A stretch of 51,366 nt of DNA from an uncultured Candidatus Saccharibacteria bacterium (GCA_964367145.1 CAYIWJ010000003.1:1-51366); one strand, 5' to 3'. Counted from the first letter of the stretch, positions 767-37,928 are shown. Notes: generated by a model not told the origin, from the sequence alone. Translations and numbers: made by a program.

Positions 767-1351
767 ATGACGAGTCTTAAAGAGCAGATTGCGCGTTACA
801 AAGACGCGCCGGAAAAAGAACCGCGAGTCGCCACCAGAATTTGGTTTGAATTACCAGTTAGTTCCAGTCATTCTTTTGAACTAGTTCATCTGATGAGTTT
901 GAACAACGCCCTACGAGGCGAGTCCACCGAAGAAGAGCGCTTGAGCATGTGCCACGAAGCTCTCGCGGTCTGGTGCCGCAACAACGCCCTGCTCGAAAAG
1001 CACGAAGGCGAACAGATTTTTGGCGGTTACCACGGCATTTACGGTGGAGAAGTTCTTGGTTTGCGATCAACAGACGGCGAAGCGCTGGAGATTTATCACG
1101 GCATTCCCTCGCGGGTCAACGGCTCTGGCCGAGGCCCAATCGGATGTCCCAAGAGACTTTGTGTTATTCGCGGAACATCCGAGGACATCCGCCGTTACGA
1201 GGCGGCAATTTTCGGCGGACAGCGTCTCGCCATTCCCTTGCCCGGCTACGCCTACGCCGAACTCGCCCCCGCGCTCATTCTGAAAACCGATTTTTGCAAA
1301 ATACCCGAAGATAGAGTTGGTGAAAAGTCGGCCGACTTTCAAACGTCCTAG
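767..1351 (+). CDS. hypothetical protein (GC-elevated ORF)
   Basis: ORF 737..1351. ATG at 767 lies 6 nt after AAGGAG. Several overlapping spurious ORFs on both strands, as expected for locally GC-rich coding sequence. Confidence 0.5.
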   Translation: MTSLKEQIARYKDAPEKEPRVATRIWFELPVSSSHSFELVHLMSLNNALRGESTEEERLSMCHEALAVWCRNNALLEKHEGEQIFGGYHGIYGGEVLGLRSTDGEALEIYHGIPSRVNGSGRGPIGCPKRLCVIRGTSEDIRRYEAAIFGGQRLAIPLPGYAYAELAPALILKTDFCKIPEDRVGEKSADFQTS

Positions 1352-1361
1352 CAAAAAAACA

Positions 1362-1385
1362 CGACCCTTGCGAAGGGTCGTTTTT
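1362..1385. terminator. bidirectional rho-independent terminator
   Basis: Stem CGACCCTT/AAGGGTCG flanked by an A-run upstream and a T-run downstream, between convergent ORFs. Confidence 0.7.
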
Positions 1386-1410
1386 ATTTCCGGTTAAACC
1401 AAGCACACCG

Positions 1411-1971
1411 CTAGCTATTCGGGGAGTGTTTTTGTCCCATAAGTATCCGTCGCCGTTCCGCGTCGCTCTCTACTATGCCGTTCAGCTCGTTCGTGTTGTT
1501 GATCGTAAAAGAAACCAGCTCCTCAAGCCTGCCAAGAAGCGCGGATTGAGACAGGTAGCAATTCGGAAAAGCCAGCACCGCGAGCCCTTGGATTACATTC
1601 AAGGAATTGAAGTAATCCCTCATGTTCTTTAATTCGGCGAACTCGGCGGTCAGCGCCACCTGTTCCGGACGTCGCTGGTGTTCCCACATCAAATCACGGA
1701 TCAGAGTGAAGGAGACTCTAAACCGATCAAGCGGCACGGCCTCACAGGCATGCACCAAAAAAATCCGCAGAGAAAAAATGACTTGAACCAAAAGCTCCGG
1801 ATCATAAACCTCCAGCCGGTAGTTTTCGGTTTCGCAATTCTTCTGCACCAAATGTCCGGCGGCGAGCGCAAAATCTCGGCTTTGCTTTTTGCAGGATTTT
1901 AACTCAATCTTTTTCCGTCTTGGAAGCAACGCCTTCGCTCGCGCCACGTCAGAACAGTTATCGCCTGTCAT
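1411..1971 (-). CDS. hypothetical protein
   Basis: 186-aa ORF. A strong AGGAGG lies 6 nt upstream of the ATG on the minus strand. Confidence 0.55.
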   Translation of the reverse strand: MTGDNCSDVARAKALLPRRKKIELKSCKKQSRDFALAAGHLVQKNCETENYRLEVYDPELLVQVIFSLRIFLVHACEAVPLDRFRVSFTLIRDLMWEHQRRPEQVALTAEFAELKNMRDYFNSLNVIQGLAVLAFPNCYLSQSALLGRLEELVSFTINNTNELNGIVESDAERRRILMGQKHSPNS

Positions 1972-2067
1972 TTATGTCCTCCTATTAAAAAGAACAAAGA
2001 ACTGGTAGTATGGTAATACAAACAAGCTAACTGTCAAACTGTTGACTGAATAAAACAATTCTCCATA

Positions 2068-2598
2068 ATGTTCTATATGAATACCCCGAGAAACAAAACT
2101 CTATTAGTCATTATTTTTCTTGTCGTCGCTGGCGCTCTTTTCTGGTTTCTTAAAGCCAAGATCACGACCGCGCCAATTTATCCGGGTCTTCCACCTGGTA
2201 CCGAAGAGGGTGAAATTATTCGGCAAGGTCCGCGATCGGGAGTTGCCGAAGCCAAGAATCTGGTCATCACGACCGAATCCGAGTGGCTAAAAACTTTTTT
2301 TGAGATTGCTCCGCACGTTTTTGTTGGCGACTATATGCCACCGATTGATTTCACCAAGGAAATCGTTATCGCTGTTTTCGCCGGTCAAAAACCGAACGGC
2401 GGGTATGGTTTCGGTGCTTATTTAAGTGGCGTTCGCCAAGCGGGGAGTCCGATTGTTGTTCATATCAGTGAAAATTCCCCAGGTCCGAATTGCGTTACCG
2501 AGCAAGTTCTCACCACGCCCTACGCTCTCCTTAAAGTTCCCAAAACCGGTCAGCGAATAGTTTTTGAAATAAAGAACTCGGTGGTTGATTGTAAATAA
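2068..2598 (+). CDS. membrane-anchored PrcB-like (protease complex subunit PrcB C-terminal domain) protein
   Basis: N-terminal TM helix. C-terminal segment AGQKPNGGYGF...PIVVHISENSPGP...TTPYALLKVPKTGQRIVFE resembles the PrcB_C pattern. The start could be ATG 2077. Confidence 0.5.
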   Translation: MFYMNTPRNKTLLVIIFLVVAGALFWFLKAKITTAPIYPGLPPGTEEGEIIRQGPRSGVAEAKNLVITTESEWLKTFFEIAPHVFVGDYMPPIDFTKEIVIAVFAGQKPNGGYGFGAYLSGVRQAGSPIVVHISENSPGPNCVTEQVLTTPYALLKVPKTGQRIVFEIKNSVVDCK

Positions 2599-2907
2599 TT
2601 TAAATAAAGGGGAAGAAAAATGCGCCTGTCTTGCTCCAAATAAAAAACCCCGAGAGCGCGTCGGGGTTTAAAGAGAGTCTGGATGCACCTAAGCCGCTAG
2701 ACCTTCGTCACTCTCTCAAACCACCTTGTCTTCCAAGGGGACCCGGCGAAACCTTGCCCAAAACAAGGCTCATCGATTGGACTACAAGAAGCGCTCTCGG
2801 AGTTACCAAAAGATTGTAGGTTAACTTCTCATTGCGGGCAAGAGCAAGTTTCAAGAGTTGCCAAGTGAATCGAAGCCCGCTAAAGTAGGTTGCAGAAGAA
2901 AATCACC

Positions 2908-4161
2908 ATGACCAAGAAACCGATTAGCTTACTGATCGCCGTTTTTGTCGCAGCCATCCTTGCGGCACTTTTTGTTTTGCCCCGCGGAATTGGCGCGCGT
3001 CTTCTACCTTGGCGTCTTGGTCTGGATTTAGTTGGTGGCGCGCATCTGGTTTATGAAATTGATATGCGCTCGGTAGACGCGGTAGATCGCGATTCAGTCC
3101 TTTCCGGTTTGCGCGGCGTGATTGAGCGTCGGGTCAATCTTTACGGCGTCAGCGAGCCGCAAGTAGTTACCGCTAAAGAGGGTGGTAACTATCGCTTGAT
3201 TGTTGAACTCGCCGGAATCAAGAATGTGGCTGATGCCATTAAAGAAATCGGCAGTACGCCATTTTTAATGTTTGCCGAAGTGGAAGAAGTTGCCACCTCG
3301 ACTGTTGGCACCACTACGCCAGCCACCGAAGCTCGTTTTATTCCTACTCAACTTACCGGACGCTATGTACGCGGCGCCCAACTGGCTTTGAGCAGTGTTA
3401 CCGGCGAACCCCAAGTAACTCTGGAGTTCGACAAAGAAGGATCTCAAATTTTTGAAACCTTAACTGGAAAAAATGTTGGTCGTCCGATCGCTGTTTTTTT
3501 AGATAACACGCTTATCACCGCTCCAATAGTTCAGCAAAAAATCACTGGCGGTCGCGCGCAAATCACCGGACGCTTTACGATTAAAGAAGCCAAGGAACTC
3601 GTCTCGCGCTTTAATGCCGGTGCTTTACCGGCCCCCATTAATCTGGTTAGCCAACAGACGATTGGAGCCAGTCTTGGCATTGATTCACTTAACCGGATTA
3701 TCTTTGCCGGAATCATTGGCACTCTATTGGTTATGCTTTTTATGGTTATTTATTACCGAACTTTTGGCTGGTATGCCTCTCTCGCGCTCTTAATCTACAT
3801 CGCCTTCAGTTTGTTTGTTTTCAAGATTTTTGGCATCACCATGACTCTGGCCGGTATTGCTGGTATTGTCCTCTCTATTGGCATGGCGGTTGATGCTAAC
3901 ATCTTAATCTTTGAACGGAGCCGAGAGGAGCGGGCTAGGGGATTGGATCGGGTTACCGCGATCGGCGAGGGCTTTAAACGCGCTTGGCCATCTATCCGCG
4001 ACTCCAACATCACGACAATTATCACCTCCGTAATCTTATATTATTTCACCTCTGGTTTTATCAAAGGCTTCGCGCTCGCCATGTTCCTTGGTGTTTTGGT
4101 GAGCATGTTTAGCGCCATTACGGTCACTAAAACCATGTTACGAGTCTTTGTTCGCCGTTAA
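2908..4161 (+). CDS. secD: protein translocase subunit SecD
   Basis: N-terminal TM helix, periplasmic domain and C-terminal 5-TM bundle with MAVDANILIFER. Followed immediately by secF. ATG 2908 chosen inside ORF 2890..4161. Confidence 0.9.
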   Translation: MTKKPISLLIAVFVAAILAALFVLPRGIGARLLPWRLGLDLVGGAHLVYEIDMRSVDAVDRDSVLSGLRGVIERRVNLYGVSEPQVVTAKEGGNYRLIVELAGIKNVADAIKEIGSTPFLMFAEVEEVATSTVGTTTPATEARFIPTQLTGRYVRGAQLALSSVTGEPQVTLEFDKEGSQIFETLTGKNVGRPIAVFLDNTLITAPIVQQKITGGRAQITGRFTIKEAKELVSRFNAGALPAPINLVSQQTIGASLGIDSLNRIIFAGIIGTLLVMLFMVIYYRTFGWYASLALLIYIAFSLFVFKIFGITMTLAGIAGIVLSIGMAVDANILIFERSREERARGLDRVTAIGEGFKRAWPSIRDSNITTIITSVILYYFTSGFIKGFALAMFLGVLVSMFSAITVTKTMLRVFVRR

Positions 4162-4168
4162 AAAAAAT

Positions 4169-5074
4169 ATGAAAAACATCATTGGTCGCAGATCAATATT
4201 TTTGTCGGTCTCAGGAACGTTGGTTGTGTTGAGCGTCATCGCGATAATCGTCTTTGGCTTCCGCTTCGGTATTGAGTTTAAGGGCGGCACCTTGTGGCAA
4301 TTATCGTTTGAGCAAAACAGCGCCGCCAAGGACACGCTGGAAACTTTTTTTAAAAATGAAATCAAAAAAGAAAATGTGACGGTTATTCCGCAAGAAACCG
4401 GCAAAATGTTTTTGATTCGGACGGAAGAAATCTCTGAACCGGAGCGACAAGAAAACCTAAAACTTCTGGAGACAAAGTTCGGTCCCGTGCAAGAGCTTTC
4501 CTTTCAAGCCATCGGCGCCTCAATCGGCAAGGAGCTGGGTCAAAAATCCATCACCGCCTTCCTTTTGGTGCTCTTCGCCATTTCAACCTACATCGCTTTC
4601 GCCTTTCGTAAATCTTCGCACCCGGTCAGTTCCTGGAAATATGGCCTTATCACTCTCGCGACGCTTTTTCATGACGCGCTGATTCCCGTCGGACTCTTCG
4701 CGGTGCTTGGCCATTATCTCGGCGTTGACATTGACGTTAATTTTATGGTCGCGGTTTTGGTCGTGATGGGATTTTCCGTTCACGATACCATTGTAGTCTT
4801 TGATCGTGTTCGGGAAAATCTAAAATCTCCCGAAGCTCGCAAAAAAGATTTCAATACTTTGGTGAACGAAAGCATCAATCAAACTCTGGCGCGCTCCATC
4901 AACACCTCACTCACTCTCGTACTTGTTTTGCTTGCCGTCTTATTTTTTGGCTCCTCAACGCTCACGTATTTCACTCTAACTATTTTGATCGGAACCATTA
5001 TCGGCACCTATTCGTCCATTTTTATCGCCAGCCCGCTTCTAACCTTGTGGCAGGGGAAGAAAGTGGAAATCTAG
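4169..5074 (+). CDS. secF: protein translocase subunit SecF
   Basis: GIEFKGGT motif and a C-terminal TM bundle with HDTIVVFDRVRE. ATG 4169 lies just after the secD stop. Confidence 0.9.
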   Translation: MKNIIGRRSIFLSVSGTLVVLSVIAIIVFGFRFGIEFKGGTLWQLSFEQNSAAKDTLETFFKNEIKKENVTVIPQETGKMFLIRTEEISEPERQENLKLLETKFGPVQELSFQAIGASIGKELGQKSITAFLLVLFAISTYIAFAFRKSSHPVSSWKYGLITLATLFHDALIPVGLFAVLGHYLGVDIDVNFMVAVLVVMGFSVHDTIVVFDRVRENLKSPEARKKDFNTLVNESINQTLARSINTSLTLVLVLLAVLFFGSSTLTYFTLTILIGTIIGTYSSIFIASPLLTLWQGKKVEI

Positions 5075-5104
5075 ACCCTAAAATAGGTGCAAGAAGAACC
5101 GGAC

Positions 5105-5134
5105 TTGACAGCCTATTGCGCTATGGATTACATT
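5105..5134 (+). promoter_or_regulatory. promoter TTGACA-N18-TACATT
   Basis: Hexamers at 5105-5110 and 5129-5134, upstream of 5180. Confidence 0.5.
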
Positions 5135-5179
5135 GTGGTAAAGTGATTTTAATTAAAAAGTAAGCTAAAAATCGTGATT

Positions 5180-6211
5180 ATGGAAAAAATAGTCAAAACA
5201 TTACTTCAGGGGCTCGACGCTCGCGCCAAAGACATCTTAACCGGTCGGTTTGGTCTTGACGGCAATGCCAGTTTAACCCTCGCCGAACTTGGCGAAAAGT
5301 ATAATATTACCCGCGAACGAGTTCGTCAGATTGAGGCTTTTGCCCTTGGTCAATCGGCGAAAAAAATGGACGAATCTGGCGCCTCCGCCTTAACGGAAAA
5401 AGCCCTGCGCTTCGTCAAAGAAATGGGTGGAGCAGTACACGACAACGCCCTTGTCGCCGAGTTGGTTAAAACCACCCCCAAAGCCATGGCCGATGCCAAA
5501 TCTGGCAATGCGGTTCGTTTTGTTATGGAACTCTCCGGAAAACTTATCGCGCATCGCGGTGATGACGACTATCATCCGTTTTGGTATCTAAACGAAGAAT
5601 CTAAAAAGAAGGCGGAAAATTTTGTTGGCCAACTGGTTAAGGCCGTCCGCAATTCCAAAGATGCTATGTTGCGCGGCGCGCAATACGACGGCGTTTTCGC
5701 GGAAGCCGTTAAAGCCTCCAAGATTAGCGAACCGGTCGGCAAAGTTTACATGGGTATCTCCCGCAAGTTTATGACCAGTCCCTTTGGCGATTTTGGTCTA
5801 GCGGAATGGGCGGAAATCAACCCCAAGACCGCGCGCGAGTGGGCTTACATCGTGGTTAAGAAGCAAAACAAGCCGCTTCACTTTACCGATATTGTCGCCG
5901 GAATTAATACCTATCGCAAAAATAAAATCGCTAACGTCCAAACCGTGCACAACGAGTTGATTAAAGATTCTCGCTTTGTTTTGGTTGGCCGCGGCATGTA
6001 CGGCTTGCAGGAGTTTGGCATCTTGCCCGGAACCGCGCGCGAAGTCATCGCTCATTTTATTAAAGAGAAAGGGCCCTTGCGCTCCGCCGATGTAGTTAAG
6101 TTCGTTCTTCAAAAACGCTTCTTTAAAGAGGGAACGATTATGATTAACCTGCAAAATAAGAAGTATTTCAAAAACCTTGGGAATGGAACCTACGATCTCC
6201 GCGAAGTTTAG
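5180..6211 (+). CDS. sigma-70 region-4-like HTH fused to a HARE-HTH (RpoE/delta-like) domain protein
   Basis: N-terminus LDARAKDILTGRFGLDG..TLAELGEKYNITRERVRQIEAFAL matches sigma70 region 4.2. C-terminus PLHFTDIV...VHNELIKDSRFVLVGRGMYGLQEF matches the HARE-HTH pattern. No region-2 motif seen. Confidence 0.6.
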   Translation: MEKIVKTLLQGLDARAKDILTGRFGLDGNASLTLAELGEKYNITRERVRQIEAFALGQSAKKMDESGASALTEKALRFVKEMGGAVHDNALVAELVKTTPKAMADAKSGNAVRFVMELSGKLIAHRGDDDYHPFWYLNEESKKKAENFVGQLVKAVRNSKDAMLRGAQYDGVFAEAVKASKISEPVGKVYMGISRKFMTSPFGDFGLAEWAEINPKTAREWAYIVVKKQNKPLHFTDIVAGINTYRKNKIANVQTVHNELIKDSRFVLVGRGMYGLQEFGILPGTAREVIAHFIKEKGPLRSADVVKFVLQKRFFKEGTIMINLQNKKYFKNLGNGTYDLREV

Positions 6212-6332
6212 CTTTTCATAATCGCAGTTAGTTCAAAAACCTTTTTCTTTGGAAATTTAATCGGCTATCAACATCCGAAGGACTTTTCCCATTTGCGAAA
6301 TACGGGCTTTCCCGTCATACTTTAAAAAAATA

Positions 6333-7586
6333 ATGTTCCAAGAAATCCTCGGCGGAGTCTGGCAGGCAGTTAGCAAGGCTTTTTCGGTCAGTTGGTGGCT
6401 TATCATTCCGATTATTTTAGGCAGTGTTCTTTGGGAGCGTTTTCGCTACTACACCCTCATCAACTTCTTCAAAAAGATGAAGTGGGTAACTCTCGAAATT
6501 CGCATCCCACAAATTATCGAAAAAACTCCCAAGGCCATGGAGCAGGTTTTTGCCGCGCTCCACGCGAGTTACGTTTTTAACATTAAATGGACCGAAAAAA
6601 ACTTTAAAGGCAAAAGTCAGGAGTGGTATTCCATTGAAATGGTCGGGATTGCCGGAGGGATTTATTTTTATATCCGAACCTCCGAAAATCACCGCAACCT
6701 GGTTGAGTCCGCCATCTACGCCCAATATCCCGACGCCGAAATCAGTGAAGTGGACGACTATGTAAGCAATTTGCCGAGTATCATTCCCAACAAGACTTAC
6801 GATCTCTGGGGAACCGATCTGATTCTAGGGCGCGATGACGGCTTTCCGATTCGCACCTATCCGGCTTTTGAAGAAAAAAAGGACGAAGCCTTGCTTGACC
6901 CCATGGCCGGTATCGCCGAGGTCATGTCTCGTCTCAAAGAAGGCGAGATGATTCTTCTGCAATTTTTAATCCGACCGACTAACGACGACTGGAAGAAGAA
7001 AGCCGAAGAAACTCGCGATAAAGTAATGGGTCGAAAGAAACCCAAAAAAGCCGGTTTTGCCGATGATGCTAAGGATCTAATCGGTAGCTTTTTCAAAGGC
7101 CCATTTGCCGAAGTTGAATTTAAGAAAAAAGACGAAAAGCCAATGACCGAAAATCTGATGATGGGTAAAACTCCGGGCGAAAAAGAAATTATTGAAGGTA
7201 TTGAGAAAAAAATGGCCAAGCTCGCTTTTGATACGCGCATTCGATTTATCTACATTGACCGCCGCGAAAGTTTTAGTCGTGGTTATATCTCGGCGGTACT
7301 AGGCGCCTTCCGCCAGTATGACACGCGAGACATGAACTACTTCCGCCCCGATATTGACACCATGACCAAGGGCAAATTTCCTTTCAAAGCCCGCAAGGCC
7401 GAAGCCAAAAAACGCAAAATCTTCAAAGCCTATCGCTACCGCATGATGGGCCGAAAAAATTCCATCATGAACGTGGAAGAGTTGGCGACCATTTTCCACT
7501 TTCCGGCTATCGCGGTCAAATCTCCGATGTTGCGCCGCTTAAGCTCGCGCAAAGGCGAACCACCGGCCGGACTGCCAATGGAGTAA
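6333..7586 (+). CDS. membrane-anchored N-module of a split VirD4/TraD-like translocase (uncharacterised domain)
   Basis: N-terminal TM helix. Colinear with residues ~1-330 of fused ORF 35232..37532 (for example EELATIFHFPAIAVKSP vs DELASFFHFPTSGFQVAKIASVKS). Confidence 0.7.
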   Translation: MFQEILGGVWQAVSKAFSVSWWLIIPIILGSVLWERFRYYTLINFFKKMKWVTLEIRIPQIIEKTPKAMEQVFAALHASYVFNIKWTEKNFKGKSQEWYSIEMVGIAGGIYFYIRTSENHRNLVESAIYAQYPDAEISEVDDYVSNLPSIIPNKTYDLWGTDLILGRDDGFPIRTYPAFEEKKDEALLDPMAGIAEVMSRLKEGEMILLQFLIRPTNDDWKKKAEETRDKVMGRKKPKKAGFADDAKDLIGSFFKGPFAEVEFKKKDEKPMTENLMMGKTPGEKEIIEGIEKKMAKLAFDTRIRFIYIDRRESFSRGYISAVLGAFRQYDTRDMNYFRPDIDTMTKGKFPFKARKAEAKKRKIFKAYRYRMMGRKNSIMNVEELATIFHFPAIAVKSPMLRRLSSRKGEPPAGLPME

Positions 7587-7641
7587 ACTGTATTTCAGTT
7601 TTGGAAAATGCTACTATTATTGCTGGCTTTTGTCCGGCGCT

Positions 7642-9294
7642 ATGAAAAAAGACGTCAACATTTTCGGTAAGGTTAATTTCCGCAACGAGGTTAAAAAATT
7701 CGGCATTAAAGCCGATGATCGCCGCCGCCATATGTATATCATTGGCAAAACCGGCATGGGCAAAACGACCATTTTGGAAAACATGGTCTATAGCGACATT
7801 CAAGCCGGTCACGGCGTTGGCGTGGTTGATCCTCACGGCGAGTTTGCCGAGAAAATCTTAGATTTTATTCCCGAACATCGGCTGGATGATGTTGTCTATT
7901 TCAATCCCTCGGACATTGATCACCCGATCGGCTTTAATCCCATTGAGCAAGTCGGCAACGAGTTCCGCCACTTAATCGCCTCAAGTATCATGGGCGTTTT
8001 CAAAAAAATCTGGCCGGATGTCTGGTCATCCCGCATGGAATATATTTTAAACAACGCTCTTTTAGCTCTTTTAGAATATCCCGATTCCACCTTGCTTGGG
8101 ATTATGCGTCTCTTAAACGATAAGGAATACCGCCGCCGGATCGTGGAAAATCTACAGGATCCGGTCATTAAGAGTTTCTGGGTCAATGAATTTTCCCGTT
8201 ATTCGCAAAAGTTTGAAACCGAAGCCACCGCCGCCATTCAAAACAAAATCGGGCAGTTTATTTCCAATCCCTTGATTCGCAACATCTTGGGGCAAAGTCA
8301 GTCGGCGATTAGTATGCGCAAAATTATGGACGAAAAGAAAATCCTCATCGTCAACTTGTCCAAAGGCAAGATGGGGGAGGATAACTCGGCTTTACTCGGC
8401 TCTATGATCATCACCCGACTCCAGCTGGCCGCTATGTCGCGCGTGGATATTCCAGAAAAGGATCGCAAAGACTTTTATCTCTACGTTGACGAATTTCAGA
8501 ACTTCGCCACCGATTCTTTTGCCAACATCTTGTCCGAGGCCAGGAAATATCGCCTTTGTTTGATTTTGGCCCATCAATATATTAGCCAACTGACCCATGA
8601 CGGCAACACCAAAGTCCGTGATGCGGTCTTTGGCAACGTCGGCACAATCGTCACCTTCCGCATTGGCGCCGAAGACGCCGAGTTTCTGGAAAAAGAATTT
8701 TTACCCGATTTCACCGCCAACGATCTGGTCAATCTCCCTAAATATAATACTTACATCAAACTTCTTATAGACGGCATGGCCTCCCGTCCATTTTCCGCCG
8801 AGATGCTCCCGCCTTTTCCGAGTATGGAAAAAACCTTCAAGGAAACGCTTATCAAAAATTCCCGAACCAAATACGGCACGCCACGCCAAGTAGTGGAAAA
8901 AAACATCGCCGGAGAATGGATGGAAGATATGAACGCCATGGACGAAAGAATGGGTCGCCGCTCCGAACCGTCGCCTCCAGAGCGCGGTTTTAACAATAGC
9001 CCAAGTCGCTCGCCGATGAGTGGCAACGCTCCAAGTAGCCGTCCGCCAATCCGTCAACCTTCCCAGCCGCCGGCAAACAGGCCCATGCCGATACAGCCCA
9101 TGAATCGTCGCCCAGACAACCGAGAAGCGCCACCGGCACCTCCGCTCGAAAAACGCGAAAAAAAAGAAGTGAACTTGTCTGATCTGCGAAAATCCATTGA
9201 CGAGGCGCTCAAGAAAAACAATCAAGAAATCATCGAAGCCGAAAAAACTCGAGTAAGTTTTCTCAAAGACCCGGAGCTGGAAGAAGAAGTTTAG
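7642..9294 (+). CDS. VirD4/TraD/TraG-like (type IV coupling-protein-like) P-loop NTPase with a Pro/Arg/Ser-rich C-terminal tail
   Basis: Walker A GKTGMGKTT, VVDPHGEF, Walker B LYVDEFQNF and ILAHQYISQL. Paralog of the C-terminal half of 35232..37532. Confidence 0.75.
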   Translation: MKKDVNIFGKVNFRNEVKKFGIKADDRRRHMYIIGKTGMGKTTILENMVYSDIQAGHGVGVVDPHGEFAEKILDFIPEHRLDDVVYFNPSDIDHPIGFNPIEQVGNEFRHLIASSIMGVFKKIWPDVWSSRMEYILNNALLALLEYPDSTLLGIMRLLNDKEYRRRIVENLQDPVIKSFWVNEFSRYSQKFETEATAAIQNKIGQFISNPLIRNILGQSQSAISMRKIMDEKKILIVNLSKGKMGEDNSALLGSMIITRLQLAAMSRVDIPEKDRKDFYLYVDEFQNFATDSFANILSEARKYRLCLILAHQYISQLTHDGNTKVRDAVFGNVGTIVTFRIGAEDAEFLEKEFLPDFTANDLVNLPKYNTYIKLLIDGMASRPFSAEMLPPFPSMEKTFKETLIKNSRTKYGTPRQVVEKNIAGEWMEDMNAMDERMGRRSEPSPPERGFNNSPSRSPMSGNAPSSRPPIRQPSQPPANRPMPIQPMNRRPDNREAPPAPPLEKREKKEVNLSDLRKSIDEALKKNNQEIIEAEKTRVSFLKDPELEEEV

Positions 9295-13952: not shown

Positions 13953-15395
13953 ATGCCCATCCACGAAAAAGCCTTTTGGTGGATGGCGGGCTTTATCTGC
14001 GGCATCTATGCCGCAACTTCCGGTTTAGACAACCCGTGGAGCATCTTGCCCTACCTTCTATCCGGCGCTTTGGTTACGGAACTTATTCTCTGGCATTACA
14101 AGACAAATATAAAGTTCTTAATCGCAAGCGCTCTCATTGCCGGATTTTTCTACTCGGTAGGATACGGCTTTCTTGTTAATCAGAATCAAACCGTGCCGGT
14201 TAGCGGTGCGGTCTTTCAGGCATCGGGTCGGGTCGCCGAAGTTCGAGCGGGTTTAGATTCCCAGCGAATTTTCCTAAGTCTCCAACCACCCCAAAACGGC
14301 CGCCTCGAGGTATTGGTTGGAAAATTTCCCGAACTTCGGTATGGCGATCAAGTTTCGGTTAAGGGAAAAATCACCGCCATACCGAATGAAAAACACTCCT
14401 ACGCTTTAAGGCATCAACTCATCGGAAGTCTTATCTTCCCCGAAGTTCTTATAGAAAATCGTGGCGGCGGAAATCCGGTTAAAAGAAAATTGGAAGAAGC
14501 ACAGCAAGCAGTCAAAAATACCCTCCGCAAAATTCTGCCCGCCGAAGAATCTTCCTTTGTTGCTGGTTTGCTTCTTGGTGATACTAGCGGTTTCTCTAAA
14601 AACTTTCGCGACTCAATTAGAAAAGCCGGTGTTAGTCATATCGTCGCCTTATCCGGCTACAACATAACTATCATCATCCAGTCAGTTGCCTTGCTTTTGC
14701 TCGGAATCGTTCCTCGTCGCGCTGTTTTTGCCCTAACAATTTTAGTGGCGCTGGGATTTGTCATTATGACCGGCGCCGACGCCTCTATTGTTCGCGCCGC
14801 CATCATGGCGCTCGTAGTTGGTCTCGCTTCGCAGACCGAAAAAATCTACAGCGCGAGAAACGCCATTGCGCTTACCGGTCTAGTAATGCTTCTTATTAAC
14901 CCCTATCTTTTGCTCGGCGATATTGGCTTTCAACTCTCCTTTTTGGCTCTTATTGGAATCTTTTATCTCGCCCCCGCTTTGCGTAAGATTTTTCATTTAG
15001 GTTTCAATTCCGGAGTTTGGCACTGGCGAGAAAACGCGGTCAATACGATTGCGGCGCAAGCCGCGGTTTTTCCCATTCTCGCCATGAGTTTCAAAACTAT
15101 CTCACTAGTTTCTATTTTGGCCAATGTTATCATTTTACCGCTTATACCGCTCACCATGCTTCTCTCCGCGGCCACTCTCGCGGTTTATGTCTTGAACTCC
15201 GCCTTAGGGCAACTCCTCGCTGAATTGCTAAAATTAGTCATGCGCGCCGAAATAAAGCTCATTGATTTTTTAAGCGCCAACGCGGGAGCGATTCAAATCA
15301 ATGCCCTAAGTGAAATCGCCACGGTATTTTATTTTTTTGCCCTGCTTGCCATCGTCTTTTACGGTCAAAAAAAATTAACGACTTATGAATCATAA
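13953..15395 (+). CDS. comEC: ComEC/Rec2 family competence protein (membrane channel part)
   Basis: Polytopic membrane protein with a competence-domain pattern (SGYNITII, MTGADASIVRAAIMA). Confidence 0.8.
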   Translation: MPIHEKAFWWMAGFICGIYAATSGLDNPWSILPYLLSGALVTELILWHYKTNIKFLIASALIAGFFYSVGYGFLVNQNQTVPVSGAVFQASGRVAEVRAGLDSQRIFLSLQPPQNGRLEVLVGKFPELRYGDQVSVKGKITAIPNEKHSYALRHQLIGSLIFPEVLIENRGGGNPVKRKLEEAQQAVKNTLRKILPAEESSFVAGLLLGDTSGFSKNFRDSIRKAGVSHIVALSGYNITIIIQSVALLLLGIVPRRAVFALTILVALGFVIMTGADASIVRAAIMALVVGLASQTEKIYSARNAIALTGLVMLLINPYLLLGDIGFQLSFLALIGIFYLAPALRKIFHLGFNSGVWHWRENAVNTIAAQAAVFPILAMSFKTISLVSILANVIILPLIPLTMLLSAATLAVYVLNSALGQLLAELLKLVMRAEIKLIDFLSANAGAIQINALSEIATVFYFFALLAIVFYGQKKLTTYES

Positions 15396-16254
15396 TAGCT
15401 CCAGAAAAAAAGCCTGGTCCTTAGTCCTTGTCTTCTGGGGTCTGGCTGTCTGGATTTTTGTTAAATCGGGAATATTCGCGCCGGAGCCAAAAACCGAACT
15501 CTTCTTTTTGAGTGTTGGTCAGGGCGACAGCGAATTGATTGTCGCTCGTAATCAATCTGGCCAGCCGGTGACGATTCTCATCGACGGCGGCCGCAACGCC
15601 GCGGTGATGGGGGAGTTGGATCGCGTACTTCCCCAAAATCACCGGTTAATCGATTTGATGATTATGACTCACCCTCAACTTGATCACTTCGCCGGTTTAA
15701 TTGACGTTGTCAGAACTTTGCCGGTTCGGGCTTTTTTAGCAACCGGCCGCAAGGGAGAAATCAGTGCTTATGATGAATTGCGCCTCGCCCTTATTGATAA
15801 AAAAATTCCCTACATTGTAATCGGCGAAGGAGATACGGTGCGATACGGCGCTTCTCGTCTTAACATCGTTTCGCCCTCGCCTACGGAGCGGCGCGACAAA
15901 GAACTCAACACCACCTCCATAGTTTTTCGTTTTACGGATGGCAACATTTCCGCCATTTATACCGGAGACGCCGGTACGAATGTAGAAACTCGGTTGGCCA
16001 AAAAATATCCGCTCGCTTCCGATGTGCTCAAAGTCGGTCATCACGGTTCAAAGTTTTCCTCGGCAACCGTATTTCTTAAAGCGGTTAATCCCAAGGCGGC
16101 GATTATCGAAGTGGGCAAAAACACCTATGGCCATCCAACCAAAGCCGCTCTCGAGCGCTTAGAAAAAAATGGCGCTCAAATTTTCCGCACCGACCTCGAT
16201 GGCACCGTCAAAATTATTAAATCAGCGCAGGGGTTAACCGCAACCGGACTCTAA
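15385..16254 (+). CDS. MBL-fold metallo-hydrolase (ComEC C-terminal beta-lactamase-like domain encoded as a separate gene)
   Basis: N-terminal TM helix, THPQLDHFAG and VGHHGS motifs. Overlaps comEC by 11 nt. Confidence 0.8.
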   Translation: MNHNSSRKKAWSLVLVFWGLAVWIFVKSGIFAPEPKTELFFLSVGQGDSELIVARNQSGQPVTILIDGGRNAAVMGELDRVLPQNHRLIDLMIMTHPQLDHFAGLIDVVRTLPVRAFLATGRKGEISAYDELRLALIDKKIPYIVIGEGDTVRYGASRLNIVSPSPTERRDKELNTTSIVFRFTDGNISAIYTGDAGTNVETRLAKKYPLASDVLKVGHHGSKFSSATVFLKAVNPKAAIIEVGKNTYGHPTKAALERLEKNGAQIFRTDLDGTVKIIKSAQGLTATGL

Positions 16255-16402
16255 AAATCTACTTGTGGATAGCTCGGCTTGCTTTAGTCCCAATCTTTAG
16301 AGACAATCAAATTAGCACCTATTGAGCCGCTGCGGGCAAAGCGCGGCTCTGATGAGAGTGGGGGCGCTCTCCACAACTGCTTCTTCGGCATACCCCACTC
16401 GA

Positions 16403-16440
16403 CCCGGGCTTCTCGCTAAAGCGGAATCCCGGGTTTTTTT
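16403..16440 (+). terminator. rho-independent terminator
   Basis: Stem CCCGGG...CCCGGG followed by T7. Confidence 0.7.
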
Positions 16441-16523
16441 ATATGATTTTCCATAAATACCATGCTCGTCTTAGCTCGTGAAGCTTTATTCATCTGCTCA
16501 AATTGACAAAGACACTTATCTGT

Positions 16524-16557
16524 AAAAAATCCCCGCGACTTTGGAAAAGTCACGGGG
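16524..16557 (-). terminator. rho-independent terminator (minus strand)
   Basis: Minus strand reads CCCCGTGACTTTTCCAAAGTCGCGGGG followed by ATTTTTT. It lies ~240 nt downstream of the dnaX stop. Confidence 0.65.
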
Positions 16558-16796
16558 AAAGGGCGCGGATGAGCCCGACCCGCTTGGACCTGAGGCCACC
16601 AACGCCTAATTAGAATCTACCGAAAAAAACGATCGAGGCGATTACGCTTCAACGCAATCTTAGAGCCGATCCTTTGCCGATCCGGAATATACAGTCCCGG
16701 AAAGGCACCGGTGCGAGACGGCGCCTCGTGGTTTGCGCGTTTCTCGGCAGACACTAAAAAAAAGATAACACCCAATTAAACCGGAAGCAAGCCACA

Positions 16797-31842: not shown

Positions 31843-32613
31843 ATGGCCTTCCCCTCCCTTGATCCTCAAGAATTTAAAGCCAGCCACGGTTACGATATCG
31901 AAGACACTTGGTATCCCCGCGTGACCAAAATTGTGGACATCAAAGCCAAGCCAGCCCTCTATCGTTATTATGGCGATGCGCCGAGTTTTGCCGCCGCCAA
32001 GGCCGCCACCGAGCGTTCCGCCGAGGAAGGTACCTTAATTCATACCGTTGCCGAAAAAATTTTTATCGGCGAGCCAACCGAAATTCCCGAAGCGGTTAAA
32101 CCGGCCATCACCGCCTTACAGGTATTTTTAGCTGAAAGAAAAATTCAAGTTCAACCGGAACATGTTGAAATGCGTATTTTGAATAAAGAGCATCGCTATG
32201 CCGGCACAATCGATACTTTAGCCACTATTGACGGAAAGTTCGGAGTATTGGATATTAAAACATCGCAAAGTATTTACCGCGACTATAATTTACAAACTGC
32301 CGCCTATGTCGGCGCCTTAGTCAAAGAATTTCCGCATCTTATAACGCGCTGGATTCTTCGCATAGATCAAATCAGAACCTGTGATGCTTGTTCGGCTACC
32401 CTTCGACCCAAAGGCGGTCAGGTTAAAATCCGGCGTCGCCCGGGTTCAGTCCCCTGCTATATCAGCCAACATGTTTGGGGACCGCTTAAGGGAGTCATCG
32501 AATTAAAAGAAATTCCCTCATCCGATGATGACTTCGGAGCTTTCCTAGCTGCCAAGCGCCTGTGGGAATGGGAAAATCAAGAACTTCTCCAAAAAATCGG
32601 ATATTTTGTCTAA
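31843..32613 (+). CDS. PD-(D/E)XK nuclease family protein (RecB/Cas4-like fold)
   Basis: GTLIH, YAGTIDTL, VLDIKTS (D..D-x-K) and QTAAY (QxxxY) motifs, plus a C-terminal Cys-containing segment. Confidence 0.7.
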   Translation: MAFPSLDPQEFKASHGYDIEDTWYPRVTKIVDIKAKPALYRYYGDAPSFAAAKAATERSAEEGTLIHTVAEKIFIGEPTEIPEAVKPAITALQVFLAERKIQVQPEHVEMRILNKEHRYAGTIDTLATIDGKFGVLDIKTSQSIYRDYNLQTAAYVGALVKEFPHLITRWILRIDQIRTCDACSATLRPKGGQVKIRRRPGSVPCYISQHVWGPLKGVIELKEIPSSDDDFGAFLAAKRLWEWENQELLQKIGYFV

Positions 32614-32666
32614 AAGAAAAAAGCAGGCTTCAAGTGCTATAATGGATATGTCTACTGGTATTTGCA

Positions 32667-33032
32667 TTGGCACACGTACCTTTAAAACCCAAGGATAACC
32701 AAGTGGAAACAACCCGCTTCTCATTGCTAACCGACTATATTTTGTTTGATCATGACCGCCGACCGACTGCTCTTCGGGAAGATGATGTTCTATTATTGCG
32801 ACTGGTTAGAAATGGCAAAAAAATAGAATCCGTCATTCACTTTATTCGCGCCGACCATTTTTTAAGACTCAATAGGCCAGGTGGCCCCGATGGCCTCTGC
32901 ATACCAAAGTTGGACGCCAGCTCCTTCCATGGCCTCGTTAAGTTAATCGCCATGAGTCTCGGCGGCACCGCTCGCCGTCTTCCTACCAAGGATGAGCACG
33001 TCGCCGGCTATAAAATATGCCGAACGGACTAA
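32667..33032 (+). CDS. hypothetical protein (TTG start, uncertain)
   Basis: ORF only. TGcTATAAT lies at 32635-32643 upstream and a terminator-like hairpin lies just downstream. Confidence 0.35.
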   Translation: MAHVPLKPKDNQVETTRFSLLTDYILFDHDRRPTALREDDVLLLRLVRNGKKIESVIHFIRADHFLRLNRPGGPDGLCIPKLDASSFHGLVKLIAMSLGGTARRLPTKDEHVAGYKICRTD

Positions 33033-33069
33033 ATACGACAGTTTTTAGCTAGAACTGGCGTATTTTTTT
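33033..33069 (+). terminator. rho-independent terminator (imperfect stem)
   Basis: Stem ATACGACAGTT/AACTGGCGTAT with 2 mismatches, followed by T7. Confidence 0.5.
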
Positions 33070-33188
33070 ACCGGTAAACCTACGGCTCTGCATCTGGCCT
33101 AAAAAAGATTAGATATATCGCTAGCACCTTAGTGTTGCAGGGCGACCTGCTCAAAACAAGTCAATGATCACGAAGAAACGGCGCAGGC

Positions 33189-33218
33189 TTGACATACTTA
33201 AGAATAGAATGTTAAGAT
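33189..33218 (+). promoter_or_regulatory. promoter TTGACA-N18-TAAGAT
   Basis: Same spacing and the same AGAATA and TTAAGATAAA blocks as the promoter at 55..84. Confidence 0.5.
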
Positions 33219-33335
33219 AAAACCCGTTAGTTTAGCTCTTTTAAAACCGAAAACCGGCTTTTAGAAACACTGCGTTTCCGCCTGATTTTGCCATAAGAGA
33301 GCTTGATTTCCACTCACACCGGAAGGGATAGACAA

Positions 33336-34100
33336 ATGCCCAAGCAAGATTTGAATCCTTGGGAACGGCTGATGAAACTCATCGGCGCCATCGTCGCGAT
33401 GGTGCAAGATGGAAGCCGAGATCTGAAAGAGGTCATGGAGTTCGCCGACTTCTTCCAGATCATCAAGGACAAGCCGAGCTTCTTCACCGACTTCAAGGCC
33501 TTCCTCGCCTCGCGCAAGGAACCCGCCACAACCCCGCAGAGCGAGCTCTCTCTCGCCCTCGACCCCCGCTCCCTCTGGACACAGATCTACGCCAAGCTCG
33601 GCATTACGGCCGACTTCACGGACGTCCCGATTCCCGCAAAGCCCGAAGGCGACTACTGGCCCATTGGTGTCTTCAAGGGCATCCTCATGAACCAGATCGT
33701 CCTTGGCCTCCAGAAACACTTCAGTGTTTACCTCTACACGGAAGATCTTGACCGTTCGGTTACCCAAAACGACCGAACAGCCGAGAAGTCCTACTTCATC
33801 TGGGTCAAGGCAACTCAAGAAGCTGATCCCGAGCTCAAGAACCTGTCAGCAAACCAGCTCAAGAAGAAAGAGATCAAGGGCATCACGCTTCTTGAGCGAC
33901 TGCTCCTTGAAGCCCTCTACTTCCTCGTTGTGAAACCCGGACAGCATCTCGACAAAGAGAATGTTACTCTTTGCTCTGGTTCTCGGGTCTCCGGCGGTGA
34001 TGTGCCGTGCGTGGGCTGGGATGGCGACGGGGTCGACGTGGATTGGTACGGTCCCGACCGTCGCTTCGTCGGCACCCGTGGTCGAGCAGTAGTTTCGTGA
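33336..34100 (+). CDS. hypothetical protein, GC3-rich; C-terminal ~185 aa paralogous to 18098..18676
   Basis: ATG 33336 follows GGAAGGG. Codons are dominated by C/G-ending forms (aag, ttc, atc, ctc, gac), unlike neighbouring genes. Many shadow ORFs on both strands. Confidence 0.65.
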   Translation: MPKQDLNPWERLMKLIGAIVAMVQDGSRDLKEVMEFADFFQIIKDKPSFFTDFKAFLASRKEPATTPQSELSLALDPRSLWTQIYAKLGITADFTDVPIPAKPEGDYWPIGVFKGILMNQIVLGLQKHFSVYLYTEDLDRSVTQNDRTAEKSYFIWVKATQEADPELKNLSANQLKKKEIKGITLLERLLLEALYFLVVKPGQHLDKENVTLCSGSRVSGGDVPCVGWDGDGVDVDWYGPDRRFVGTRGRAVVS

Positions 34101-35231: not shown

Positions 35232-37532
35232 TTAAGTTCTCAAACGCTGCAAAATATCATTCTCAACTTCTCGTCGTTCTCGCCCAAACTTAGCGCGAGA
35301 TGCCTCTCTAGAGCGAGTGGCGAGCCCTGCATCTGGCCGGGAGACAGCCGCCGTCTTAATGTTGAAAGGCCTAGCGGTTAATCCGTTAATCAACAGCTTA
35401 ACATAGGCATGATAGTTATCGATGTTGATAAGATCATTCTTGTCGAAGACCGGCTCAAACTGGCGTACCAAAAACTCGGCGTCTTCCGCTCCAACTCTAA
35501 ACACCACCATCGACCCGACATTACCAAACACCGCGTCGCGAATTTTTTCCGTCAGCTGGGCTATAAACTGGTGTGCCACCGTTAAATTCAAACCATATTT
35601 TCGCGCTTCAGATAAAATTGTGGCGATAGAATCAGTAGAAAAGTTCTGAAACTCATCAATGTAAAGATTAAAAGGAACTCGGTCTACCTGGGGTGTGTCC
35701 ACGCGCGACAAGGCCGCCATCAAAATCTTACCCACCACCACCATACCGATAAGTCCGGCATTGATGTCGCCAATCTTGCCCTTGGAAAGATTGCACAACA
35801 GTATCTTTCGACTATCCATAATCTCACGAAAACGAAAGGCGGATTGCACTTGGCCGATAATCGGCCGCACGTAATCATTGGCAATAAAGTTGCTGAATTT
35901 AGAAGTTACATAAGGAGTGATATTTTGGAGCGACGCCTCTCCTCCCGCCTTAACCGCCTCCTTTTCCCAAAAATCAATCACCGTAGGATTTGTCGCCCGC
36001 GCGAGTTTCTTGGCGCGAAAAGCCGCGTCCGAAAACAGACGTGGAATCTCCACCAAAGTTGCCGGATTTTCTGGATCATCCATCAGGAGCAAAAGCGCGT
36101 TGCGCATATATTGCTCAAACATCGGCCCCATCGTTTCGGAGGAAAAAAGTTTGTTAAAAATTCCCTGGATCTCGTTGACGATAAAAGTTTTTTGCTCGGG
36201 TTTGGTCGGGTCATTTTCCAGCATATTTAATCCCAAAGGACGCTCAATATCCCCCGGATCAAAAAGAATCACGTCCGAAAGCCGCTCAGCTGGAATAAGT
36301 CCCAATAGTGATTCAATTAGATCGCCGTGCGGATCAACGACCGCCACGCCCTTTCCGCTTTGAATGTCTTGCAGGGCCATCTTGACCATCAGATTCGATT
36401 TTCCGGTGCCGGTTTGACCAATCAAATAAATATGTCTTCCGCGATCAGAGTCCCCAATGCGAATTGGCTGAACTTGTCCGGCAAAAGTGCTTTCTCCGAT
36501 TAAAACTCCATCGGTTGGCAACTCAATCGGCGCCGCCGCCTCGCGTGATTTAACCGAGGCGATTTTGGCGACTTGAAACCCACTGGTTGGAAAATGAAAA
36601 AAACTGGCCAATTCATCCGTGTTCAAAATCATCTCATTCGCCGAACCAAAAGAACGAAAAATAAAGTCTTCAATTGTTCGCCGCGGATTTTTTGGCGTAA
36701 CAACTTTAACTTGGTTGCCGTTTGCCAGTTCAAATTGCCCACAAGCGACTAAGGCTCCGTTTAGAAGTTCCTCGGCTCGTAAATCATTTGGCGCAGTCGC
36801 CACCAACCTAACCGCTACTTTATATAGCGTTTGGGAAAGTTTATTTTGCACAAGTCTGATTTTTCCCTGATCAAGTGGCTCCGGCGTTTGCAAAACCTGG
36901 TCACCCTTTTCCTTCGCCTGGGGTGGCTTTTTTATCGTCTCCAAATATCGCATGCCACTCTTCTTTGTTCCCGAGGAGGCTCCCTCTACCACCACCTGCA
37001 AAGCCAACCCCTCGCCGACGGCGCGCAGATTGGCAAAAGCCGAAAGGAAAGACAAAAATAGGTCAGCCTTTGCTTCCGTGTAAGTCCGTAAAGGCAGGGC
37101 AAAATGAGATTTTTGCTCCAAGGTCGCCACCCTTACCTTACCCGAACCCCCGAATATGGTGTAATCATCCGCATGGCTCACCTGGGCTCCGGGCCAAAGC
37201 GCTCGGATATATTTCGCCACCCCCTCTTCGGCGCTAGTCGGTACGGCGCAATAGAACTTAATCTCCTCACCGATATTATGCACCGCGAGCTCCAACGCGA
37301 ACGGCTTCTTCATTCCCAAAAGTGAATTAAAAAACTGACCAGAAACCGCGATCTCACGCAGTGGATCTTTAGCCTCACCACTCCCCGCCGGATCGCGGGG
37401 TAAACGCACCAAAAGCAGGCGCAAATTAAGATCCAGAAGCAATTTTTTTCGTCGGCGCGAACTCCACCAAAAATATCCGCCAGTTAAAACCACGACTACA
37501 GCCAATCCAAGATAAACAAAAATCTGTGGCAT
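35232..37532 (-). CDS. fused membrane N-module plus VirD4/TraD-like P-loop NTPase
   Basis: N-terminal TM helix. Walker A GQTGTGKSN, VVDPHGD, Walker B LYIDEFQNF and TVAHQFIAQL. Colinear with the gene pair 6333..7586 + 7642..9294. Confidence 0.75.
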   Translation of the reverse strand: MPQIFVYLGLAVVVVLTGGYFWWSSRRRKKLLLDLNLRLLLVRLPRDPAGSGEAKDPLREIAVSGQFFNSLLGMKKPFALELAVHNIGEEIKFYCAVPTSAEEGVAKYIRALWPGAQVSHADDYTIFGGSGKVRVATLEQKSHFALPLRTYTEAKADLFLSFLSAFANLRAVGEGLALQVVVEGASSGTKKSGMRYLETIKKPPQAKEKGDQVLQTPEPLDQGKIRLVQNKLSQTLYKVAVRLVATAPNDLRAEELLNGALVACGQFELANGNQVKVVTPKNPRRTIEDFIFRSFGSANEMILNTDELASFFHFPTSGFQVAKIASVKSREAAAPIELPTDGVLIGESTFAGQVQPIRIGDSDRGRHIYLIGQTGTGKSNLMVKMALQDIQSGKGVAVVDPHGDLIESLLGLIPAERLSDVILFDPGDIERPLGLNMLENDPTKPEQKTFIVNEIQGIFNKLFSSETMGPMFEQYMRNALLLLMDDPENPATLVEIPRLFSDAAFRAKKLARATNPTVIDFWEKEAVKAGGEASLQNITPYVTSKFSNFIANDYVRPIIGQVQSAFRFREIMDSRKILLCNLSKGKIGDINAGLIGMVVVGKILMAALSRVDTPQVDRVPFNLYIDEFQNFSTDSIATILSEARKYGLNLTVAHQFIAQLTEKIRDAVFGNVGSMVVFRVGAEDAEFLVRQFEPVFDKNDLINIDNYHAYVKLLINGLTARPFNIKTAAVSRPDAGLATRSREASRAKFGRERREVENDILQRLRT

Positions 37533-37928
37533 CTATTTCAATAGCCCGCGTTTTTTAAACTCCTCATAAAACGTATCGGTGATAGCGTCATGAAATCCAT
37601 CTAACACCAACGGTGGTGATTTTTTAGCTTGCTTTATAGCCGAAGCCAATCCTTTATGCAGAGCCGAATCAATCAATTCCTCAACCATCAGCCGCGTGGC
37701 GGGATCTTCCGAAGCTAAATATAGAGGCAAGGCCGATGGCTTTGCATTCGCCGAAGTTTGACTTCCGGCGGAGTTGGAAGCCGGTGGCAAAGGACTTAGA
37801 CGTTCGCCAATGACTTCGCGCAAAACTTCGCGGTCGGATTTTTTCTCTAGGCTCCGTCCATTAATTTCAATTTTCAAATCTTGAATATCACGCTCAAGCG
37901 CCGAATGCCGTTCCGATGGTGCTTCCAT
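37533..37928 (-). CDS. hypothetical small protein, abutting the downstream translocase gene
   Basis: 131-aa ORF. Its stop codon directly abuts ATG 37532. A TGgTATACT element lies 7 nt upstream of its own ATG. Confidence 0.55.
   Translation of the reverse strand: MEAPSERHSALERDIQDLKIEINGRSLEKKSDREVLREVIGERLSPLPPASNSAGSQTSANAKPSALPLYLASEDPATRLMVEELIDSALHKGLASAIKQAKKSPPLVLDGFHDAITDTFYEEFKKRGLLK

Follow-up and report, generated by a model that had tools for sequence, protein, structure and literature searches.

The stretch of DNA analysed here (51,366 nt, referred to below as the window) belongs to a contig of an uncultured Candidatus Saccharibacteria bacterium (CAYIWJ010000003.1) and carries two loci encoding related ATPases. 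At one of them, two consecutive open reading frames (ORFs) encode a 417-aa protein, here called the N-module, and a separate ATPase, while at the other both parts are fused in a single 766-aa protein. These ORFs are as given in a preliminary description of this DNA, to which we add that the fused ORF lies on the minus strand. The features of both loci are the following (TM, transmembrane; T4CP, type IV coupling protein):

6333-7586, plus strand: N-module gene of the split paralog, 417 aa, TM helix followed by a DUF8128 (PF26449) domain
6387-6434, plus strand: TM helix of the N-module (residues ~16-34), by hydrophobicity
7476-7505 and 7560-7577, plus strand: conserved C-terminal motifs of the N-module, EELATIFHFP and PPAGLP respectively, with residues invariant among homologues
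7642-9294, plus strand: ATPase gene of the split paralog, 550 aa from the ATG at 7642, T4CP-like P-loop motor without TM segment
7744-7767, plus strand: Walker A motif of the ATPase, GKTGMGKT
8479-8496, plus strand: Walker B motif of the ATPase, LYVDEF
8932-9291, plus strand: disordered Pro/Ser/Arg-rich tail of the ATPase
9169-9210, plus strand: terminal tail motif of the ATPase, VNLSDLRKSIDEAL, conserved among orthologues
35232-37532, minus strand: fused paralog, 766 aa
37464-37526, minus strand: TM helix of the fused paralog (residues 3-23)
36510-37427, minus strand: DUF8128 domain of the fused paralog (residues ~36-341)
35235-36509, minus strand: T4CP-like ATPase of the fused paralog (residues 342-766)
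36396-36419, minus strand: Walker A motif of the fused paralog, GQTGTGKS (residues 372-379)
35649-35666, minus strand: Walker B motif of the fused paralog, LYIDEF (residues 623-628)

By comparing the two loci, we could confirm the earlier proposal that the split pair and the fused ORF are colinear paralogs. In BLASTP, residues 110-417 of the N-module aligned to residues 91-341 of the fused ORF (45.8 bits, E 3e-9, 20% identity), and the ATPase aligned to its residues 341-760 (353 bits, E 2e-117, 43% identity). Both loci share DUF8128, and the phage-protein profile phrog_5156 (824 positions), which matches the fused protein with an E-value of 1.3e-73, is colinear with both halves of the split pair, covering the N-module with its positions 44-305 (E 7.1e-21) and the ATPase with its positions 407-812 (E 1.8e-67). 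On a MAFFT alignment of 74 sequences, the last residue of the N-module fell on residue 341 of the fused protein and the first residue of the ATPase on residue 338. Since both gene ends are within three columns of the domain boundary, the gene break lies at the inter-domain linker, as previously described.

A hydrophobicity scan returned one TM-like segment each for the N-module, in agreement with the single N-terminal helix reported earlier, and for the fused protein. In both cases the segment is N-terminal and followed by basic residues, whereas no such segment exists in the separate ATPase. The ORF of the latter opens at a TTG (7630), the ATG at 7642 (MKKDVNIF...), 55 nt past the N-module stop codon, being the likelier start. 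The motor of the fused protein must be in the cytoplasm, and as no further TM segment follows the N-terminal one, we infer that the DUF8128 domain is cytoplasmic as well.

The preliminary description had not recognised the N-module. The domain is catalogued, as Pfam DUF8128, and its predicted fold matches the N-terminal domain of VirB4/TrwK, although no VirB4 sequence model matches it. The PF26449 calls on the window proteins come from a precomputed Pfam table for the identical proteins P0001 and P0121, and the domain is assigned to the N-module, the fused protein and every listed homologue, split or fused. Our local Pfam scan returned no family for the N-module, which may be a false negative since the local Pfam-A library apparently predates or lacks PF26449. 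We found no published mention of DUF8128 or PF26449, full-text searching having been limited. The AlphaFold2 model of the N-module, based on an alignment of 86 sequences, was confident (pLDDT 89.1, pTM 0.83). When this model was compared with the PDB by Foldseek, the top 13 matches were all TrwK/VirB4 of the R388 type IV secretion system (T4SS), with E-values of 1.4e-5 to 1.1e-3 and a probability of ~1.0, and the matches ranked after them were unrelated oxidases (E >0.02). TM-scores between the N-module and TrwK were modest (0.3-0.4), and Foldseek gave no aligned ranges. As for sequence, the DUF8128 profile found nothing among PDB sequences, VirB4 included, and had no hhalign match to TrsD of pSK41. 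Likewise, hhalign of the family profiles against single sequences of pSK41 TrsD, TrsE (VirB4) and TrsK (T4CP) and of phage G gp155 gave short P-loop/Walker B stretches or nothing. The N-module thus matches a characterised family, VirB4, in predicted fold and not in sequence.

The second half had been described as a motor resembling T4CPs within the FtsK/HerA superfamily, and this assignment stands. In Pfam, the separate ATPase matched TrwB_AAD_bind (7.7e-17, aligned over positions 9-311 of the 387 of the profile), T4SS-DNA_transf (2.2e-10) and TraG-D_C (1.7e-7), all T4CP models above their gathering scores (PF10412, 61.7 bits for a cut-off of 20.5; PF02534, 40.4 for 20.1; PF12696, 31.6 for 22). 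It also matched DUF87, which reflects the core shared by the superfamily. The catalytic Walker motifs are invariant in 69 sequences. In the AlphaFold2 model of the fused protein (pLDDT 87.1), the C-terminal half matched TrwB (TMt 0.60-0.65, rmsd 5-7 Å) and next HerA and Cagbeta, and a six-helix insert is predicted between Walker A and Walker B (residues 446-550), at the place of the all-alpha domain of TrwB. Over its full length, the best structural match of the fused model was TrwK (~870 columns, E 1.5e-15, TM-scores 0.3-0.4), which is also the sole significant match of the N-module.

Together these data indicate an architecture made of one TM helix, a cytoplasmic domain predicted to fold like the N-terminal domain of VirB4 and a motor resembling coupling proteins (TrwB/VirD4). 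Since the modelled fold of the N-module is TrwK-like while the motor is T4CP-like by both Pfam score and fold, this would be a VirB4 architecture with a coupling-protein-type motor. VirB4 itself (TrwK of R388; PDB 7o42, 7o43, 8rtd) has the same N-terminal domain followed by a C-terminal FtsK/HerA-type ATPase, and resembles the present family in being membrane-associated, via N-terminal TM helices when fused to VirB3. It differs in that the present motor scores higher on T4CP models, that there is no match at the sequence level (no PF03135; TIGR00929 at 14.4 bits for a cut-off of 643; AAA_10 at E 0.08) and that the present family consists of two chromosomal paralogs, one of them split. Neither virB3, virB6 nor virB8 is adjacent in any of the nine annotated related contexts, each spanning +/-5-10 kb. 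T4CPs (TrwB, VirD4, TraD, TraG, Cagbeta) share the Pfam models, the TrwB fold and the helical insert between Walker A and Walker B, but they carry two TM helices directly before the motor. In contrast, the present family has a single segment, located ~300 aa away in the fused form or on the other polypeptide in the split form, with the ~300-aa VirB4-like domain between anchor and motor. NCBIfam T4CP models were all far under their cut-offs, the best being conju_CD1115 (51.8 bits for 250) and SXT_TraD (47.8 for 366). The layout of the split pair is that of TrsD and TrsE of pGO1/pSK41 and of the TrsD-virB4 pairs of Patescibacteria, where a small relative of the VirB4 N-terminus is encoded just upstream of the ATPase. 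However, TrsD has 227 aa, lies inside T4SS clusters and has VirB4 as its ATPase partner, whereas the partner here is T4CP-like. The motor did not reach the models for FtsK/SpoIIIE (PF01580, E 0.03, 14.2 bits for a cut-off of 24), with a single TM helix instead of a multi-span anchor, nor that for HerA (NF040819, 17.8 bits for 970), and no NurA-like neighbour was seen. A role in defence was set aside, as PADLOC matched only the motor, to mad8 (E 3.6e-19) and weakly to HerA/DndH, and there is no defence-gene context.

The split ATPases end in low-complexity C-terminal tails of 49-260 aa. A short motif, VNLSDLRKSIDEAL in the window, is found ~20 residues before the tail end in 39 of 68 tails, for 0.9 expected by chance. 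In their length and conserved end these tails are similar to those with which TraD and DotL bind partners, although this is no more than a resemblance. Separately, a zinc-ribbon-like insert (CxxCG...F(K/Q)PD..RP(V/I)YCxxC) is present in the disordered tail of 25/69 orthologues (among them L032, L033, L037, L039, L042, L043, L045, L048, L050 and L054) and absent from the window copy.

Both forms are widespread. We found 1,772 relatives of the N-module in 90%-identity clusters (those listed have ~380-440 aa and come from Patescibacteria/Parcubacteria metagenome-assembled genomes, MAGs) and more than 4,137 relatives of the fused form (~725-850 aa). When run against 1.84 billion representatives, the DUF8128 profile matched 3,330 clusters (50% identity), and 580 or more of the GTDB species representatives have a gene for the N-module. 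Among the best 80 loci of such representatives, on which all our split-locus counts (gene order, gaps and neighbours) are based, a separate ATPase gene follows the N-module in 75, and at no locus are the two fused. These split loci span Yanofsky-, Azam-, Wolfe-, Kerfeld-, Moranii-, Magasanikbacteria and others, and both forms were found together on one MAG contig. The window ATPase is 47-75% identical to its split orthologues, for 37-45% when the fused protein is used as query on the same genes. Since the split orthologues are closer to the window ATPase than to the fused query, duplication and fission predate the listed lineages. The fused form is probably ancestral, because the phage relatives (see below) and VirB4 are single-chain. 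These observations show that one of the paralogs results from an ancient gene fission at the linker between N-terminal domain and motor, and that it has been stably inherited.

Alternatively, a truly fused gene could appear split through a frameshift, pseudogenisation or faulty assembly, as might be suspected from the 26 of 75 loci whose two ORFs share one reading frame and from some tblastn alignments that cross the stop codon. Yet all 75 loci showing both halves, which come from independent assemblies, have the stop codon. Both frames occur, the gap between N-module and ATPase ranges from a 4-nt overlap (one locus) to more than 600 nt (median ~35 nt), and the N-module clusters are of uniform length (~410-430 aa; ~380-440 aa among the relatives listed at 90% identity). 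This distribution across loci refutes an artefactual origin of the split.

Two copy-number observations can be added. An apparent ATPase-only third copy comes right after the split pair in L045 (5584-6900), and the fused paralog lies within 10 kb of the split pair in L054 (19400-21220), L061 (3-968) and L085 (156-2516).

According to the preliminary description the module looked self-contained, which is not shown. Each paralog has a tightly conserved upstream neighbour gene, and the literature places the T4SS of most Patescibacteria elsewhere in the genome. The two neighbours are (HTH, helix-turn-helix):

5174-6211, plus strand: sigma-r4/HARE-HTH gene, upstream of the split pair, 345 aa, sigma-70 region 4 at residues 10-58 and HARE-HTH at residues 221-281 (Pfam, NCBIfam)
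37533-37928, minus strand: 131-aa gene, upstream of the fused paralog, its stop codon abutting the fused start codon

Against PDB sequences, the sigma-r4/HARE-HTH protein matched only region 4 of RpoD, and its HARE-HTH is like that of the delta subunit of RNA polymerase (RNAP). Sigma region 2 is missing, so the protein cannot be a complete sigma factor. Homologues with 28-46% identity immediately precede the N-module gene in 75/80 loci; in four of the remaining five, there is no upstream DNA. Further upstream, secD-secF is directly adjacent in 53 of the 69 loci with enough room and is absent from the 16 others, which keep the cassette; the genes downstream of the split pair vary among related loci. 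Because secF is sometimes absent and the downstream genes vary, the stable unit consists of the sigma-r4/HARE-HTH gene, then DUF8128, then the ATPase. As for the fused gene, 131-137-aa homologues of its neighbour (37-42% identity) are directly upstream in 7/7 contexts. The 131-aa protein had no Pfam, NCBIfam, PHROG or PADLOC match.

Around both loci the window carries housekeeping genes (secD, secF, efp, mnmA, comEC, dnaX, scpAB, ftsW, murG, gltX, ychF, pgk, rplI, def and fmt). Its GC content is even, it has no tRNA genes, and neither locus is marked by a composition anomaly. Promoter and terminator scans stayed at chance level and did not define operons. A Pfam scan of the ORFs of at least 110 aa, except a few that all overlap larger annotated genes, revealed no gene of the VirB, relaxase, pilus or Tra type. 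This agrees with the earlier statement that neither copy has T4SS or relaxase genes beside it, which the nine annotated related contexts extend; no T4SS genes, let alone a complete set, surround the homologues in these nine. Both forms are old chromosomal genes of ultra-small, Parcubacteria-type Patescibacteria, in housekeeping surroundings.

Outside Patescibacteria, full-length relatives are found in phages of the phrog_5156 group, whose members include Bacillus phage G gp156, the 906-913-aa proteins of SPO1-like phages and a protein of TP-84. These phage proteins are homologous over DUF8128 plus motor, but with only 20-25% identity. By hhalign over the full length, gp156 was matched with a probability of 100% (E 2.9e-43) and the 906-aa protein of SP8 with 99.6% (E 6e-24). 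The N-module fold was found in gp156, phage JL gp150, phage Slash and phage G gp155, with an E-value of 1.6e-17 within the phrog_5156 set. In phage G, gp155, directly upstream of gp156, has a VirB4-type ATPase domain and a DUF8128-like N-domain. In SP8 the gene order is an Alp7A/ParM-like actin, the DUF8128-ATPase homologue and a Replic_Relax protein, and phage JL is alike. The cassettes are located as follows:

Phage SP8 (L090), 3239-8749
Phage JL (L095), 823-6314
Phage G (L091), 2652-6794

These phage gene contexts point to DNA handling. Neither the Replic_Relax protein of SP8 nor the 131-aa protein of the window is similar to the sigma-r4/HARE-HTH protein. A scan of IMG/VR matched one contig only, so that a viral origin of the window genes was dropped. 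Two further observations concern the phage genes. The Herelleviridae cassette consists of a ParM/Alp7A-like actin, small ORFs, the 906-913-aa DUF8128-ATPase and a Replic_Relax-family protein, and some records label the large protein as "MsbA-like lipid A export", a label that its domain content does not support.

According to our data, the two loci encode paralogs belonging to a single family that extends across Patescibacteria and forms part of the VirB4/VirD4 branch of FtsK/HerA ATPases. The ATPase part of this family has probably been reported before. In a recent survey (Quinonero-Coronel et al. 2025, PMC12102498), 2,417 of 3,035 Patescibacteria genomes encode VirB4, and 5,713 VirD4-type T4CP homologues are found in 2,918 of the 3,035 (96%, about two each), of which only 148 are near virB4. 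Because about two homologues per genome would fit the two paralogs, the present family probably corresponds to the "orphan T4CP homologues" of that report. The N-terminal domain, the split/fused pair and the conserved neighbours are not described in the portion of the paper available. The interpretation in the preliminary description is partly supported. The finding is real but only partly new, namely a new architecture within a known ATPase clade, parts of which were already catalogued, as DUF8128 and as the orphan T4CP homologues.

According to the literature, most Patescibacteria encode a T4SS near oriC without a coupling protein in cis. The essential T4SS of S. epibionticum has no recognisable coupling or relaxase proteins (Wang et al. 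2023, PMC10633639). We propose that the Patescibacteria T4SS is the most likely channel for the paralog motors, a proposal that we hold tentatively and at slightly less than even chances. As the ATPase has no hydrophobic segment while the N-module and the fused protein have one each, the 417-aa N-module would anchor the ATPase ring, which would be soluble on its own, at the cytoplasmic side of the membrane. The split version would in this way rebuild the two-tier, VirB4-like assembly that the fused paralog may form in one chain. By hydrolysing NTP, the ring would drive its substrate, which most likely is DNA or a nucleoprotein, into a channel whose genes lie elsewhere; the likeliest candidate would be the chromosomal monoderm-type T4SS near oriC that has no coupling ATPase in cis. 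The two paralogs might then act as two substrate-recruiting modules, one with the HTH protein and the long C-terminal tail, the other with the 131-aa protein.

Several points weigh against such a role in a T4SS. Neither in the window nor in the nine annotated related contexts is a T4SS, relaxase or pilus gene located close to one of the paralogs, so that the linkage to relaxase or mating-pair-formation genes typical of T4CPs was not seen in either set. A T4SS could not be demonstrated for the genome from which the window comes. One TM helix followed by a 300-aa spacer is unlike any studied T4CP, and the link between the N-module and VirB4 is one of predicted fold, sequence and profile methods showing no bridge. 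Moreover, according to the 2025 report, the T4CP homologue of S. epibionticum is non-essential although the T4SS is essential, and T4CP homologues occur in ~500 more genomes than VirB4 (PMC12102498). Redundancy between the paralogs and incompleteness of MAGs could explain both the non-essentiality and the excess over VirB4.

These last two points would suit a motor exapted, independently of any T4SS, for housekeeping, that is for DNA handling at the membrane, either like FtsK/SpoIIIE at division or by pulling DNA in behind ComEC, with the sigma-r4/HARE-HTH protein as a DNA- or RNAP-binding adaptor. We consider this possible, though rather unlikely. The authors of the 2025 report themselves did not exclude exaptation of orphan T4CP homologues (PMC12102498). 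The core chromosomal positions beside secDF, efp, mnmA, ftsW and murG, the tight cassette partner with two HTH-type domains, and the phage relatives, which are mostly without T4SS and beside segregation and relaxase-like genes, all agree with it. ComEC, which had been mentioned together with the module in the preliminary description, is encoded 4.7 kb downstream of the split pair in the window, a distance reduced to ~1 kb in L025, L027 and L040. However, this linkage is loose: of the 35 related loci with enough sequence, only 7 have ComEC within 8 kb on the downstream side. In addition, a single TM helix per subunit cannot form a DNA pore, so that a channel partner would still be required, and all characterised members of the VirB4/VirD4 branch act with a T4SS-type or Ced-type apparatus. 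A third reading makes the proteins VirB4-like assembly or dislocase ATPases acting on proteins instead of DNA, extracting or feeding pilins, membrane proteins or secreted proteins for a surface structure. The VirB4-like N-domain and overall architecture, the secD-secF genes upstream in 53/69 loci, and the essential VirB2-like pilins of Patescibacteria T4SSs, for which protein export has been proposed, would go along with this. Yet the motor is nearer to T4CP models (61.7 bits for TrwB_AAD_bind against 14.4 for the VirB4 model TIGR00929 and E 0.08 for AAA_10), secDF has been lost from 16 loci that keep the cassette, and the phage relatives sit in DNA-related contexts, which makes this reading improbable.

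That the genes are decayed cargo of a conjugative element or prophage, without a cellular role, could be argued from the T4CP-like ATPase, the relatives in Bacillus phages, and a PD-(D/E)XK gene with ORFans at 31843-34100, on the side where a relative with 85% identity has an integrase island. On the other hand, the same arrangement of genes is seen, at 34-49% identity, in 75/80 species representatives, GC content is even, no integrase, relaxase or repeats flank either window locus, one IMG/VR contig alone was matched, the ORFs are all intact and the catalytic motifs invariant. This explanation is close to refuted. A broader view, which seems to us doubtful but worth stating, would be that the family forms a third, previously undescribed lineage within the clade of VirB4 and VirD4 and has become, in duplicate, an almost universal core machine of Patescibacteria, operating without a T4SS as a membrane-tethered DNA or nucleoprotein translocase with its own adaptors. 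A VirB4-type N-domain on a coupling-protein-type motor is a plausible evolutionary intermediate between the two, and such a lineage might serve in chromosome handling or nucleic-acid acquisition of host-dependent cells, with the HTH and small proteins as adaptors.

Patescibacteria account for a large share of bacterial diversity, and their T4SS is essential to the epibiotic lifestyle in the one species tested, yet its cluster has no coupling ATPase and its substrate is not known. Should the two near-universal paralogs be these missing ATPases, their adaptors (HTH protein, 131-aa protein and tail motif) would point to the transported substrate; if they work alone, they would represent a core membrane machine that is new for the phylum. 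The architecture also bears on the origin of VirD4-type coupling proteins from VirB4-like ancestors. The ancient natural split offers a ready means of separating the roles of N-domain and motor, and the same architecture in SPO1-like and jumbo Bacillus phages provides a genetically tractable system to address function.

Finally, some features of the window lie apart from the two loci. ComEC is encoded by two overlapping ORFs on the plus strand, 13953-15395 (DUF4131 and Competence) and 15385-16254 (metallo-beta-lactamase). L003 shares this two-gene layout (14319-15752 and 15731-16567), which looks like a second conserved gene fission in the lineage. Downstream of the neighbour of the fused paralog, 31843-34100 holds a PD-(D/E)XK nuclease-like gene and two ORFans with slightly raised GC content (0.51). 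On the corresponding side, the 85%-identical relative encodes integrase, PDDEXK, SMC/AAA_13 and ResIII proteins, so that this is probably a variable island. On the minus strand, 39043-41631 encodes an 862-aa ResIII/Helicase_C (SNF2-like) helicase that ends in about five tandem repeats of ~70 aa, counted by eye, each with the motifs PEWF and H(F/L/I)SPxL(I/V).

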